Positions 2,884 to 11,179 of a DNA stretch of 64,000 bases are shown piece by piece. The stretch is from positions 64,001-128,000 of the IMG/VR virus record IMGVR_UViG_3300029922_000015. One strand, 5' to 3'. This DNA comes from a virus. Position 1 is the first letter of the stretch. Each line of letters opens with the position of its first letter. The notes beneath the pieces were generated by a model that searched no databases, was not told the origin of the DNA, and saw only the letters and a list, made by a program, of their open reading frames with translations. Made by a program: the position numbers and the translations under genes.

Positions 2884-3753
2884 TCAAGAACTATGTATAA
2901 AATCAAAAGCTTTTTTTATCCAAATTTTGGGCTCCCGATAACAGTCTTTCCAAGGAATCCTAAGTGTTTCCCACCCTAAATCTTTTAGTATTTTATCTCG
3001 TTGTATATCCGAATCAATTTGTTTTTGAAATCGTTGGTGTTGTTCTCCGTCCATTTCAATACATTTTTTTAAATTAATCCATGCGAAATCTAAGGAAAAA
3101 CGATGTAATATATGCTCTCTTGTATAATTTTTATTTTTAAATTCGTTATAAATTACTTTTTCGAACCATTGTTCGGGATATGAGGACTTACCCTTATTTT
3201 GATTATGCCCTAAAGTATAAGCTAATCCCTTTGAGTGTCTTTCCTTCATTATCAAGGACAGTTTTAATTTAGCGGAATCCGAAAGTTTTGGAAAGTTATT
3301 TTTTGTTTTCTGCCATTGACTTAAACTTTTAATTTTGAAAGTTCCTTTTTTAATAGATTTTCTAATATAGTTTAAGGGAATACCCGTTCTAAAAGATAGG
3401 CTTTTTATATTTATTAATTCGGAATTATATATTTTCTGAGCTTCTTCAAGATTATATTCTTTGGTTTTAGGGCGATGTCTAGAAATTTTCTTTTCCGATA
3501 AAATTTTACTGACCGTCATAAAAGATACGGAGTATTTTTTAGATAGCAATCGCCACGACAATCCTAATAAATAATCTCTAACAATATTGTTTCGGTCTTG
3601 CTCTGAAACCGCTTTCTTTTTTCTATTATTAAATCGGCCACTTCCGATAGCTTTACGAATTGTTCCTATGGGTATATTTAAATCAGATAAATATAAATTA
3701 GGATTGTCATCATAAAATTTTTGAATTTCCGGCCAATTATATTTACATTTCAT
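2884..3753 (-). CDS. DUF559/Vsr-like endonuclease with N-terminal HTH repeats (homing-endonuclease-like)
   Basis: C-terminal SYPE..LDFAW..IEMDGEQH..D..RD..L...GW..LRIPW. Confidence 0.85.
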   Translation of the reverse strand: MKCKYNWPEIQKFYDDNPNLYLSDLNIPIGTIRKAIGSGRFNNRKKKAVSEQDRNNIVRDYLLGLSWRLLSKKYSVSFMTVSKILSEKKISRHRPKTKEYNLEEAQKIYNSELINIKSLSFRTGIPLNYIRKSIKKGTFKIKSLSQWQKTKNNFPKLSDSAKLKLSLIMKERHSKGLAYTLGHNQNKGKSSYPEQWFEKVIYNEFKNKNYTREHILHRFSLDFAWINLKKCIEMDGEQHQRFQKQIDSDIQRDKILKDLGWETLRIPWKDCYREPKIWIKKAFDFIHSS

Positions 3754-4695: not shown

Positions 4696-4739
4696 ACGGA
4701 GAATTACACCGTGGAGACGAAGGAGAGAAACTAAAAAAG

Positions 4740-5120
4740 TGGACACGAGCGGAGTCGAACCGCTGTCTTAGAAGTATTTAATACACAATGACTTACAAGC
4801 TTTTCCCATTTTGATTCCTTGTGAAGTTAAAAAGGAAAATGACTTCACACATAATCTAATTGTTAATAATAAAATTCAAGTACAATACGATAAAAACTTG
4901 ATTTTATTCAGATTAAACACATCGCAATCCATTATCTGAGTCCTAAACCGCGACGAAAGCTCCCTTTAAGAAGCTAAGGCTATGTCAGCAACGTTTCCGT
5001 TACGTCCATAGCTGGAACGAGTTTTATTGTCGTTTATTTTTTGATTGCTTTCACAACATTCAATCATAGTTGGCTTGCACTATATATCTTCGACTTCCAA
5101 TCGAAGCCTTTTACGTGCCC
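4740..5120 (-). ncRNA. ssrA: tmRNA
   Basis: GGGCACG/CGTGTCC-A acceptor with G3.U70, GCGG-TTCGACT-CCGC T-arm, tag frame DNKTRSSYGRNGNVADIALAS* at 5031-4966. Confidence 0.92.
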
Positions 5121-5750: not shown

Positions 5751-5945
5751 TTAAAGAATATCGAAATCACTAAAACTATGCGCAATCGCATTACGCTCAA
5801 ATGAGTAGAAATAAGATTTTCGGTTTGTCATGGGTTGTTTAAGCTTAACCTTGATAAACCTTTTACCGTTGTAAATATGTATCTTACCGACAAAATTAAA
5901 TTGGCCAAAAAACTCAACGGCGTCTCTTGGAGCGTGTACGTTCAC
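5751..5945 (-). CDS. hypothetical protein
   Basis: 64 aa ORF. Confidence 0.5.
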   Translation of the reverse strand: MNVHAPRDAVEFFGQFNFVGKIHIYNGKRFIKVKLKQPMTNRKSYFYSFERNAIAHSFSDFDIL

Positions 5946-6035: not shown

Positions 6036-6317
6036 TCATTTTTCTTTTCTGTAAGACTCACATTTGAAATCTATAATTTTAGAGGCTTGGGCGTGTTGGG
6101 CTAACAACAAATAAACCAATTTCGCGCAAGGGGTAACATCGTCTATCTCGGCTAGCTCCATTCTTGATTCGTGTTGAATTTGATTCCAGCAATTTTTAAG
6201 TAACTCCGCAGAAATATCTACTTGCCCCTGAATCGTTCTCAAGCCAGCCGGAAAGAATAAGACGGTATTATGAGAAGAATCTTCTGGCGTAATCGATTTA
6301 AGTATATCAGAGTCCAT
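6036..6317 (-). CDS. hypothetical protein
   Basis: 93 aa ORF, TTGACT-N17-TATGAT promoter immediately upstream. Confidence 0.65.
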   Translation of the reverse strand: MDSDILKSITPEDSSHNTVLFFPAGLRTIQGQVDISAELLKNCWNQIQHESRMELAEIDDVTPCAKLVYLLLAQHAQASKIIDFKCESYRKEK

Positions 6318-6361
6318 GATCTAGAATCATACCACACTTATTCATTTAAGTCAAGAAAATT

Positions 6362-6557
6362 TTGTTGTAGCCGTAGCCGCGTTTCTGTTTTATCTCTTCA
6401 TTTATCTATGCCTCAACCCGAATATGATCGCGTAACCGACACGCTAATTCTGTTTGAGTTGCTGGTTCCGTGGTAATCGAAATGAATTTCTCCCACGTTA
6501 GGTTATCCAGACGCGAACTTCCTCCAGATTACTCCAGCGAAGAGTCGCTTGCAACAA
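6362..6557 (-). ncRNA. rnpB: minimal RNase P RNA (catalytic domain with vestigial S-domain)
   Basis: GAGGAAGTTCGCG and ACAGAAACGCGGCT (P4), AGCAA, AGATAAATGA; P1, P2 CTCTTC/GAAGAG, P5 CTGG/CCAG, P6 TAACC/GGTTA and P15 CTCAA/TTGAG all pair. Confidence 0.88.
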
Positions 6558-6564
6558 AAAATTT

Positions 6565-6825
6565 TTAACCGTTCGTTGACGGCGCGGGCGTTGGTGCGCT
6601 TTTAGGATTCGGAAAAGCCTTACCCTTTTTCTTCTTAGCGGGATAAGGATATTTTCCTACATTATTAGGATCAACATTATTATTGTTTGTGCTCGGGACG
6701 TTGTAACTATAGCCACTAGTAGGCCAAACATAACCCGCTTTACAAATCGGGCAAATCTTTTTGGGATTTTTCTTGTCCGCCTCGGACATCTTATTTTTTG
6801 ATCCGCAAATGCAATAAGTAAACAT
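6565..6825 (-). CDS. small zinc-ribbon protein
   Basis: CICG...CPIC motifs; GTGTAA-N8-ATG start. Confidence 0.7.
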   Translation of the reverse strand: MFTYCICGSKNKMSEADKKNPKKICPICKAGYVWPTSGYSYNVPSTNNNNVDPNNVGKYPYPAKKKKGKAFPNPKSAPTPAPSTNG

Positions 6826-6844
6826 AATAATATTTACACTAAAA

Positions 6845-6923
6845 TGGTGGGGATAGTCGGGATCAAACCGACGCCGAAGCTTTGAGAGAGCTACATCCTA
6901 ATCAACTATTAGACGATATCCCC
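6845..6923 (-). tRNA. tRNA-Glu(CTC)
   Basis: AGCT-ct-CTC-aa-AGCT arm, CCA. Confidence 0.9.
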
Positions 6924-6929
6924 GTAAAG

Positions 6930-7004
6930 TGGTAGCCCATGACGGTTACGATCCGTCTTTCGAAGCTTGAAAGGCTTCTGAATTAACCATTATTCGAATG
7001 GGCC
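6930..7004 (-). tRNA. tRNA-Glu(TTC)
   Basis: GAAGC-ct-TTC-aa-GCTTC arm, CCA. Confidence 0.9.
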
Positions 7005-7011
7005 AATTAAA

Positions 7012-8097
7012 TTATCTACCTAACAAATCTTTCCAATGCTCTAAACCGACTCTAACATAACTACGAAGAGCTTGTCTTCCGTCTTCGACGGCGTTGTCGT
7101 CGTTTAACAAATATAATCCTGTACGAGCTATGCTTGTCGGGTCTTCACAATTACACCACCAGTCTCGCGGCGTCCATTCAATAGAGCTTCCCACTACGGA
7201 AGGAACTCCCATAGAAATTCCATCGGCGGTTACAACATTGAAGGTTTCATCGAAACTTGGTTGAAGAAGTAAATGCATGTGGGCGACAGTATTCTTAAAA
7301 GTCGGCCAAGACTCCCAAGGCACGTCGATTAACTTCGCATCTCTTTCCCCTACAAATAAATCTAATCTAGATTGAAATAAAAGCCTTTCATAATCCCGAC
7401 GAGAGTTAACGTATAACTCTAAATTTACGCCTAATTGTCTAGAAAGTTGATAAGCGCCCATTGCGGCGGTTAATTGATTCTTCCAAGGGCGAGGAGCGCC
7501 GAAGGAGCCAATACGAATCGTATCTCCTATCTTTCTTTTTCGAGGATATGGATTAACAAAAGAATGGGTATCATAAAGATTTGGAAGATACAAGCATTCG
7601 CAACGATATGTCTTTCTTAGCCATTCGACAAAGCGCGTGTTATTGCCACTCACTTTAACATTAGAAGTTGCTTTTTGTAATTCAATTATTTTTTTATTGC
7701 AAAGAATTCCTGATTCATCTCTATTTCTGTCAATAGAAAGATAGGCGCAACCCGTATGATTCTGGAGAATAAACTCAATATGAGGGAAAGCGTAGGCAAG
7801 CTCTGCCATTTGTTTCGCCGTAATCCAGCTAGGGGAATTAATAATAACGTGACTAGGACGGATAGAATTAAATTGAATAGCGTGATCGTTCGCCGCTTTG
7901 ATTTGAGAATAAACTTCTTCAAAATTTTGTCCCGACCAAATTTCAGCGAAATAACCTTCTCGTCTTAAAACGTTAATATTGTTTTGATTAGTTACCCCAA
8001 GTCCAATATTGGAAATCCCCGGCCCACCGAAGTTTTTAGCGAAGAAAATAACGCGGGCTGTTTCTTTCTTCGGATTTAAATGATGAGGACGATGCAT
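7012..8097 (-). CDS. GT-B (GT4-like) glycosyltransferase
   Basis: FGAPRPWKN and LQPSFDETFNVVTADGISMGVPSV motifs. Confidence 0.8.
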   Translation of the reverse strand: MHRPHHLNPKKETARVIFFAKNFGGPGISNIGLGVTNQNNINVLRREGYFAEIWSGQNFEEVYSQIKAANDHAIQFNSIRPSHVIINSPSWITAKQMAELAYAFPHIEFILQNHTGCAYLSIDRNRDESGILCNKKIIELQKATSNVKVSGNNTRFVEWLRKTYRCECLYLPNLYDTHSFVNPYPRKRKIGDTIRIGSFGAPRPWKNQLTAAMGAYQLSRQLGVNLELYVNSRRDYERLLFQSRLDLFVGERDAKLIDVPWESWPTFKNTVAHMHLLLQPSFDETFNVVTADGISMGVPSVVGSSIEWTPRDWWCNCEDPTSIARTGLYLLNDDNAVEDGRQALRSYVRVGLEHWKDLLGR

Positions 8098-10549: not shown

Positions 10550-10629
10550 TGGTAGCCCAAATAGGATTCGAACCTACATATTATTCCGTTATGCTCCCAT
10601 CGCTTCGAAGGCGCGGTCAATATTGGGCT
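10550..10629 (-). tRNA. rearranged/D-armless tRNA-Arg(TCG)-like RNA
   Basis: AGCCCAA/TTGGGCT acceptor, ct-TCG-aa loop right after a short linker, canonical T-arm, ACCA. Confidence 0.7.
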
Positions 10630-11179
10630 ATAAAATTTTATAAAATCTACACCATTTTCTTACGGCATTATCAGAAACTCCATATTTCTTTCCCGCCGCC
10701 ACAAAACTATGATCTACTAAAAATAATTGTAATTCTTCTTTAGAAGGCCATAAAACTTTTCTTCGTTTTTCATCATAAATTTTAGTAAATTTATTTTTAT
10801 AACGCTTACGAAATTCTATATTATTTTCTCTAAGAATTTTTTTTATCCTATAATAACTATAACTAGATTGATTAATTTCGAGCTTAATCAAAATTTCATT
10901 TATAGAAATTCCGCTATTATATAAATCTAATACTATATTATAATCTATTTTCTTAGAGGACTTTTGATTATTGACATTCGTTGTTGGTTCTTGACTGTGG
11001 CAATTAGGACATAGAAATTCAACATTTTCTATCCTATGATCTTCTGATTGCCCATTTTTATGATGTAATTCTAAAGTTAGTGTTTTACCTTGCCACTCCC
11101 CTTTATTCCCGCATCGGCAAATATACGGAATCAAATTTTCCCGTAATATTTTCTTTTTAAAAGTGCATCTCGAACTCAT
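10628..11179 (-). CDS. HNH endonuclease with C-terminal HTH
   Basis: LELHHKNG...DHRIENVEFLCPNCHSQ; GKKYGVSDNAVRKW. Confidence 0.9.
   Translation of the reverse strand: MSSRCTFKKKILRENLIPYICRCGNKGEWQGKTLTLELHHKNGQSEDHRIENVEFLCPNCHSQEPTTNVNNQKSSKKIDYNIVLDLYNSGISINEILIKLEINQSSYSYYRIKKILRENNIEFRKRYKNKFTKIYDEKRRKVLWPSKEELQLFLVDHSFVAAGKKYGVSDNAVRKWCRFYKIL

Follow-up and report, generated by a model that had tools for sequence, protein, structure and literature searches.

RNase P RNA is, to our knowledge, a universal cellular ribozyme. In the structure of the bacterial holoenzyme with tRNA, the P8-P14, CR-II and CR-III modules of the RNA stack on the T/D-loop elbow of the substrate. The bacterial protein subunit RnpA contacts P2/P3 and CR-IV/CR-V, and the GGU of loop L15 in class A RNase P pairs with the 3'-CCA of the tRNA. 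A strongly reduced archaeal form, the type T (also type P) RNase P RNA of Pyrobaculum, reportedly was described by Lai and colleagues in 2010; the type T RNA works with several archaeal proteins. Bacterial RNase P RNAs typically span 340-420 nt, archaeal type A RNAs are devoid of P13/P14 and P18, and the Pyrobaculum type P/T RNAs consist of the catalytic domain only, with nearly the entire specificity domain missing (PMC4919922). On its own, the catalytic domain (C-domain) of the E. coli RNA is able to cleave substrates whether or not the C5 protein is present, albeit with lowered efficiency (PMC5839562). In such C-domain-only ribozymes, which are poor enzymes in vitro, P18 is dispensable and the P6-type interaction matters (PMC5839562).

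Analysis of an IMG/VR virus record supports the presence of a real, conserved RNase P RNA gene that is minimal and encoded by a phage. The reduced gene, ~200 nt in length, is assigned to positions 6360-6559 on the minus strand of the window, by which is meant the whole 64,000-nt stretch that was analyzed (Table 1). The strand was assigned as minus because the CGTGG/CCACG hairpin of the RNA is correct only when that strand is read. The ends were set by the outermost pairs of P1 for which covariation is seen among relatives, and agree to within 3 nt with an Rfam match at 6363-6556 and with the interval 6362-6557 in which a first-pass annotation, made from the letters alone, had placed a phage-encoded RNase P RNA of ~196 nt. 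That proposal is borne out, with a length of ~196-200 nt, by relatives recovered with a covariance model (R1), by covariation and by family members that score on the bacterial Rfam model RF00010.

Table 1. Elements of the proposed phage RNase P RNA gene and its immediate neighbors (positions in the window).
Feature	Position	Strand	Remarks
Whole reduced RNase P RNA gene	6360..6559	minus	R1 span 6359-6560; RF00373 match 6363-6556; outer P1 covariation
P1 5' strand	6547..6559	minus	UUUUGUUG, 2-nt loop, AGC; pairs with 6360-6371
P1 3' strand	6360..6371	minus	GCU.CAACAAAA
P2 5' strand	6539..6544	minus	CUCUUC; pairs with GAAGAG at 6394-6399
P3 hairpin	6524..6537	minus	CUGGA-GUAA-UCUGG, GUAA loop
CR-I and P4 5' strand	6512..6524	minus	GAGGAAGUUCGCG; bulged U at 6516
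P5 5' strand	6507..6510	minus	CUGG; pairs with CCAG at 6462-6465
P6 pseudoknot 5' strand	6501..6504	minus	AACC; pairs with GGUU at 6434-6437 in the P17 loop
Specificity-domain remnant, 29 nt	6469..6497	minus	5-bp P7-like stem CGUGG/CCACG, asymmetric internal loop, short variable hairpin
J5/15	6459..6461	minus	CAA (GCAA with preceding G); both A invariant
P15-P16-P17 arm	6412..6458	minus	L15 GGU at 6416-6418
CR-IV	6399..6408	minus	UAGAUAAAUG; joining strand in place of P18 and J18/2
CR-V	6374..6388	minus	ACAGAAACGCGGCUA; contains P4 3' strand 6375-6381
86-aa ORF	6565..6825	minus	End 5 nt upstream of RNA; Cys pairs, basic tail
Two tRNA genes upstream of RNA	6848..7004	minus	tRNA at 6848-6923 and tRNA-Glu at 6930-7004

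The virus record comprises 149,934 bp, with an estimated completeness of ~75% and a G+C content of 38.6%, and encodes a T4-type replication set of DNA polymerase, DnaB-like helicase, UvsX-like recombinase and ribonucleotide reductase. Between 1.4 and 17.5 kb the window carries 32-33 tRNA genes and a tmRNA gene, all on the minus strand and with small ORFs in between, and 3'-CCA is encoded by 29 of the 33 tRNA genes. The candidate RNA is located on the tRNA strand within this ~34-gene tRNA/tmRNA array, where it occupies a 247-nt gap between minus-strand ORFs at 6565-6825 and 6036-6317. No gene for RnpA (PF00825) was found in the 150-kb record, and one could sit in the missing part of the phage genome as the record is only partly complete. 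Scans for promoters and terminators revealed nothing above background that was attributable to the RNA, and a promoter-like site was located just downstream of it, at 6354-6326. A blastn search of the 4-kb region against phages produced no match.

The surroundings of the gene within the array also were inspected. The 86-aa ORF upstream of the RNA matched no Pfam family and is not conserved beside other family members, and for the 93-aa ORF downstream no homologue apart from itself was found. The tRNA at 6848-6923 (minus strand) was called by Rfam with 49.3 bits and is absent from the ARAGORN list. For the phage tmRNA at 4737-5120 (minus strand, 97.4 bits), a long tag is predicted whose end reads ...IALAS where ...LAA is usual. 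A 64-aa ORF at 5751-5945 (minus strand) showed a weak match to ribosomal protein S19, with 22.3 bits against a cut-off of 27. Endonuclease-type genes are interspersed between tRNA genes at 2884-3753 (minus strand, REase_MTES_1575/DUF559) and 10628-11179 (minus strand, HNH), which suggests the presence of homing elements inside the array. The RNA also neighbors a gene for a 361-aa glycosyltransferase-like protein at 7012-8097 (minus strand), for which peptide patterns detected no match in IMG/VR. Synteny via this gene was considered and discarded, as homologues with 65-81% identity occur in unrelated phage contexts without the RNA: one contig has a Mu-type portal and another an integrase plus CsrA, with no common neighbors. 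The gene behaves as a mobile moron.

The predicted fold was assessed element by element on the minus strand. The catalytic motifs and helices P1-P6 and P15-P17, which the first-pass annotation had described as pairable throughout, each proved to pair when checked singly, and the pairs covary strongly in relatives. P4 is formed by A-G-U-[U]-C-G-C-G with CGCGGCU, giving 7 bp and the single bulged U that is typical of RNase P. The CR-I and CR-V consensus motifs reportedly set out by Chen and Pace in 1997 are GNAANNUC and ACNNNANNNNGNNUA, and both are fitted by GGAAGUUC and ACAGAAACGCGGCUA of the phage RNA. The strand that leads into P2 includes AGAUAAAU at 6400-6407, which corresponds to the CR-IV consensus of RNase P RNA, AGNNNNAU. 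The arm is built from P15 (CUCA/UGAG), P16 (GAAU/AUUC) and P17 (GCGU/ACGC), with the P17 loop pairing back as P6, so that the P15-P16-P17 arm of class A RNAs is present together with the P6 pseudoknot and an L15 loop with GGU. The adenosines of J5/15 are taken to be the counterpart of the region around A248 in M1 RNA of E. coli. The role of A248 in E. coli RNase P RNA is set out in PMC10465520.

The class A features that are missing from the RNA are the specificity domain (P7-P14, CR-II/CR-III) and the P18 hairpin. In accordance with the earlier description, P18 is replaced by only 12 unpaired nucleotides (GCAUAGAUAAAU) that connect P15 to P2. The specificity domain likewise is cut down to the one hairpin that had been noted previously, a 29-nt stub that corresponds to a simple hairpin in all relatives, with P8-P14, CR-II and CR-III missing. 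In most members the stub takes the form of a 5-bp stem with GGAG on one side and CG.UU..AC on the other, followed by a variable distal hairpin. This P7-like stub may merely close the P5 junction. The likeness to archaeal RNAs with a depleted specificity domain, which the first-pass annotation had drawn, is apt.

Standard searches with the window copy alone were equivocal. At gathering thresholds Rfam detected tRNAs and the tmRNA in the window, but no RNase P RNA, and a permissive Rfam scan of 901 nt matched no RNase P model. The models RF00010, RF02357 and RF00373 gave no match in the phage genome at E ≤ 10, so the respective cut-offs for RF00010 (100 bits) and RF02357 (60 bits) were not reached. 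The archaeal RNase P model RF00373 was matched over its full length at 6363-6556 (minus strand), with 22.5 bits and an E value of 6.6e-5 against a gathering cut-off of 84 bits, only when the search was confined to 226 nt. Thermodynamic folding was unremarkable compared to shuffled sequence (z = -0.79), with minimum free energy z-scores uninformative on both strands. A loose descriptor of CR-I, CR-V and P4 produces about one chance match per 150 kb of shuffled sequence and so is not significant alone. The call would stay open on the Rfam, folding-energy and descriptor evidence alone. The first-pass annotation had named the lack of a covariance-model hit as grounds against its proposal. The lack is real at the scale of the window and the genome and does not extend to the 226-nt search; that yardstick was too strict, as the link to Rfam emerges in the short search and via intermediate members of the family.

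Relatives were sought in IMG/VR with a pattern of GAGGAAR, 100-130 nt, TAGATRAATG, 6-14 nt and ACAGAA, which located 29 loci. The R1 covariance model was built from the window sequence alone with hand-drawn nested helices from which P4 and P6 were left out. It matched 24 of the 29 loci over the full length (20-146 bits); these are 165-230 nt long with a G+C content of 31-60%, on contigs of 6-476 kb. A separate, strict DNA pattern had a single match in IMG/VR (L001), which was discarded as a chance occurrence in an apparent coding region that does not align. Of 28 further candidate loci in IMG/VR, 14 were confirmed by R1, all of them from a search with the first spacer widened to 131-161 nt, and shorter forms in which CR-I and CR-IV are spaced by 69-99 nt yielded no R1-confirmed member. 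Among GenBank phages, blastn followed by R1 confirmed four of four: LR745206.1 (635 kb), LR756501.1 (735 kb), LR756500.1 (462 kb) and vB_SmaS-DLP_6. A blastn match in Microcystis phage MaAM05 was rejected as it was not confirmed by R1. When the pattern that had located the 29 loci was applied to bacterial and archaeal genomes (596 Gb), it matched at 38 places, four of which were R1-confirmed, and all four adjoin tRNA arrays. With so few real members in this volume of cellular sequence, the family is strongly enriched in viral sequence. Overall, R1 recovered 46 full-length relatives at 20-146 bits, from 38 IMG/VR contigs, four GenBank phages and four cellular-assembly contigs, with G+C contents from 30% to 63%.

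Certain relatives bridge the gap to annotated RNase P RNAs. Two copies of ~207 nt (L053 and L046) that scored 31.9 and 38.7 bits on R1 attained 118.5 bits, which exceeds the cut-off of 100, and 63.5 bits, respectively, on RF00010, and were aligned over the full 367 positions of that model. A copy from Achromobacter anxifer scored 82.7 bits on RF00010. The DLP_6 copy (KU682439.2 105772-106020; L103:2301-2549) is 249 nt long and scored 65.9 bits on R1, and no Rfam model matched it even in a 291-nt search. It is located directly upstream of tRNA-Arg-CCG, where it fills a gap that lacks annotation and has a hypothetical CDS on its other side. The family thus grades into recognizable class A RNase P RNA, with the window and DLP_6 copies at the diverged end. 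As some members pass the RF00010 cut-off, automated annotation may already label a few.

The Achromobacter isolate, A. anxifer LMG 26857, possesses both a canonical rnpB of 405 nt (202 bits on RF00010) and the mini copy of 224 nt (L092, G004:C5:14076-14299). The latter is situated within 32 tRNA genes in 8 kb on a contig of 486,889 bp and is flanked by genes for a GyrB-like topoisomerase, an RNA ligase, a thymidylate synthase and an AAA kinase. In view of these flanking genes, the contig may be a jumbo phage or phage-like replicon instead of a chromosome.

Covariation was evaluated in a model-guided alignment of the window copy and 22 relatives, representing 21 distinct sequences. Standard pairs filled 95.4% of cells compared to 63.4% in shuffles, none of 500 of which reached the observed value, and 33-44% when partners were slid by 1-3 columns. 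Changes on both sides were evident in 49 of 58 pairs across the 21 sequences, and the covariation score was 0.645, compared to which shuffles gave 0.165 and the slid controls 0.05-0.08. All 11 pairs of P1 showed compensatory changes. P2 was 98.3% paired with compensation in five of six pairs, P3 98.8% paired with compensation in four of five, and P5 100% paired with compensation in all four. An alignment that is fitted to a model leans toward the structure of that model. The P4 and P6 pseudoknots are free of this bias as neither was in R1, and both were 100% paired, with compensatory changes in six of seven pairs of P4 and three of four pairs of P6. P4 and P6 define the RNase P catalytic core.

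The invariance of GAGGAA, UAGAURAAUG (CR-IV) and ACAGAA is partly by construction since the search pattern required these motifs. Outside the pattern, the bulged U at 6516, C 6510 and the G and AA of J5/15 were invariant in the 21 sequences, as were the L15 GGU at 6416-6418, G 6411 and the UA that ends CR-V.

The genomic neighborhoods of the relatives were compared. Of the first 24 relatives, 15 or more are located in tRNA arrays and on the strand of the tRNA genes. In L058, L061, L062, L063 and L047, tRNA genes flank the RNA within a few nucleotides, such that tRNA processing itself would release the tightly flanked RNAs. No neighboring protein gene is shared across the family, which leaves no candidate for a phage protein subunit. 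In LR756501.1 (L105) and LR756500.1 (L106), an ORF that ends at the 5' end of the RNA resembles an RNA-repair enzyme; judged by eye, a 342-aa RNA-ligase-like protein presumably is encoded by one of these ORFs and a 186-aa Tpt1/KptA-like 2'-phosphotransferase by the other. A conserved ORF of ~80 aa stops 2-6 nt short of the RNA in four loci (L041:5881-6126, L043:2699-2941, L044:13598-13858 and L055:498-743). This ORF has no relationship to the 86-aa ORF that occupies the equivalent place in the window, and most other members are without it.

The distribution of the RNA is patchy. Two phages with DNA polymerases that are 42-46% identical to that of the present phage (G002 and G003) had no member detectable by R1 or by the CR-I/CR-V/P4 descriptor. 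The G003 genome, with a completeness of 100%, contains ~21 tRNA genes along with a tmRNA gene, yet is without the mini RNase P RNA, and a phage tRNA array therefore can exist without the RNA. The contigs that carry the closest relatives of the RNA itself (L052, L049, L128 and LR745206.1) reach 635 kb. These observations hint that the RNA may have been exchanged between large phages and not inherited in a strictly vertical manner.

The favored interpretation, with a probability of roughly 0.7 and founded on sequence comparison, is that the locus specifies an active RNase P RNA that acts with host RnpA to trim the phage pre-tRNAs, and probably the tmRNA, at the 5' end, with the elbow unread. The RNA would be transcribed together with the phage tRNA array and fold into the catalytic core. 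It probably would borrow the host RnpA protein since no phage-encoded version was found, and the resulting complex would cleave the 5' leaders of the phage pre-tRNAs and probably also that of the phage tmRNA. Substrates would be recognized via the acceptor stem, the 5' leader and pairing of the 3'-CCA with the invariant L15 GGU, whereas the T/D-loop elbow would go unread as the RNA has lost the elbow-reading modules. The conserved GGU and the CCA-encoding tRNA genes fit with standard class A recognition. The likely benefit would be extra tRNA-processing capacity under phage control in a phage with ~34 tRNA genes. A more specific proposal, in which an elbow-blind phage RNase P takes over host RnpA, relies solely on acceptor stem, leader and encoded CCA for recognition, and preferentially matures the CCA-encoding tRNAs of the phage, including bodies or tRNA-like RNAs that the host handles poorly, is possible but doubtful.

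An active ribozyme might instead have principal substrates that are not ordinary pre-tRNAs, but D-armless or odd-elbow tRNAs, tRNA-like elements, the tmRNA or polycistronic transcripts of tRNAs and ORFs that are poor substrates for the host enzyme. The first of these possibilities was raised by the first-pass annotation, according to which the RNA could mature the D-armless or altered-T-loop tRNAs of the array and would ignore elbow mimics. Loss of the elbow-reading domain would be expected to relax or alter substrate choice, and the array is interleaved with ORFs and includes a tmRNA gene. However, the relatives reside in arrays of tRNA genes that ARAGORN called ordinary, which indicates that the RNA is not specific to odd tRNAs, and the match to standard class A recognition provided by the GGU and the encoded CCA ends also argues for ordinary substrates. 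This alternative is unlikely. Another alternative is that the RNA is a sponge that titrates host RnpA off the full-length RNase P RNA, thereby lowering host tRNA maturation as a form of host shut-off. No RnpA gene was found in the phage record, and hence any holoenzyme would have to use the host protein; moreover, the RnpA-contact regions P2/P3 and CR-IV/CR-V are retained in the phage RNA. Nevertheless, the invariant bulged U, J5/15 AA and L15 GGU serve catalysis and substrate docking, not protein binding, P15-P17 and P6 are maintained by compensatory change, and a sponge also would starve the ~34 tRNA genes of the phage of processing, which together make this explanation unlikely. That the locus is functionless, either a decaying relic of a captured bacterial rnpB or a chance resemblance, has a very slight probability: the weak Rfam score, the unremarkable folding energy and the absence from the nearest DNA-polymerase relatives could be read in that way, but the 46 full-length relatives have kept every helix via compensatory changes over the broad G+C range, and decay would not keep pseudoknots and invariant core residues.

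If the interpretation as a pre-tRNA-trimming RNase P RNA is true, tRNA 5' processing would join tRNAs, tmRNA and synthetases among the translation functions of large phages. Were the elbow-blind reading true, phage translation would be independent of host tRNA processing, and the RNA would represent the first RNase P from a virus as well as a naturally minimal ribozyme of the bacterial type with an origin independent of the Pyrobaculum type. A search of ~8.4 million full texts, with most subscription journals outside its scope, retrieved no description of an RNase P RNA encoded by a phage or other virus, and the mini phage RNA apparently is an undescribed variant of a well-known ribozyme. Most copies are missed by standard Rfam scans, and the gene is without annotation in published genomes that include the 735-kb record and DLP_6. 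The cultured Stenotrophomonas phage DLP_6 offers an experimental system for the mini RNA. As a natural version devoid of the specificity domain, the RNA provides a ready-made test of the need for this domain and P18 in vivo, a question that has been approached so far by laboratory deletions and through one archaeal lineage.

Among known RNase P RNAs, the phage RNA shares P1-P6, P15-P17, the bulged U of P4, the P6 pseudoknot, CR-I, CR-IV, CR-V, the J5/15 adenosines and the L15 GGU with bacterial class A (rnpB/M1 RNA, RF00010). It differs from class A in its length of ~200 nt, in the loss of P18, P8-P14, CR-II and CR-III with only a P7-like stub left, and in being encoded inside phage tRNA arrays instead of by a cellular housekeeping gene. 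Judged by sequence and by the P6/P16/P17/L15 architecture, the phage RNA is assigned to a bacterial class A origin. It is not an ordinary member of that class as the specificity domain, P18 and a score above the Rfam cut-off all are wanting. The archaeal model RF00373 is the best Rfam match of the window copy, and archaeal type A RNAs similarly are without P18, but the specificity domain of type A is missing in the phage RNA and the relatives match the bacterial model better. The type T RNA (RF02357, 208 positions) is of a similar size class and also is essentially a catalytic domain only; in contrast, type T is archaeal and cellular, whereas the phage RNA is bacterial-type and keeps P6, P16/P17 and the L15 GGU. 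The reduction of the phage RNA thus looks independent of, and convergent with, that of the Pyrobaculum type. The same parts are missing from the engineered C-domains of E. coli ('CP RPR') and P. furiosus, and in the phage RNA, too, P6 is kept and P18 is dropped. The phage RNA probably would operate in the manner of the Pyrobaculum type and of these C-domains. Whereas those C-domains are laboratory constructs, the phage RNA is natural and conserved, and has a conserved P7-like stub of its own.
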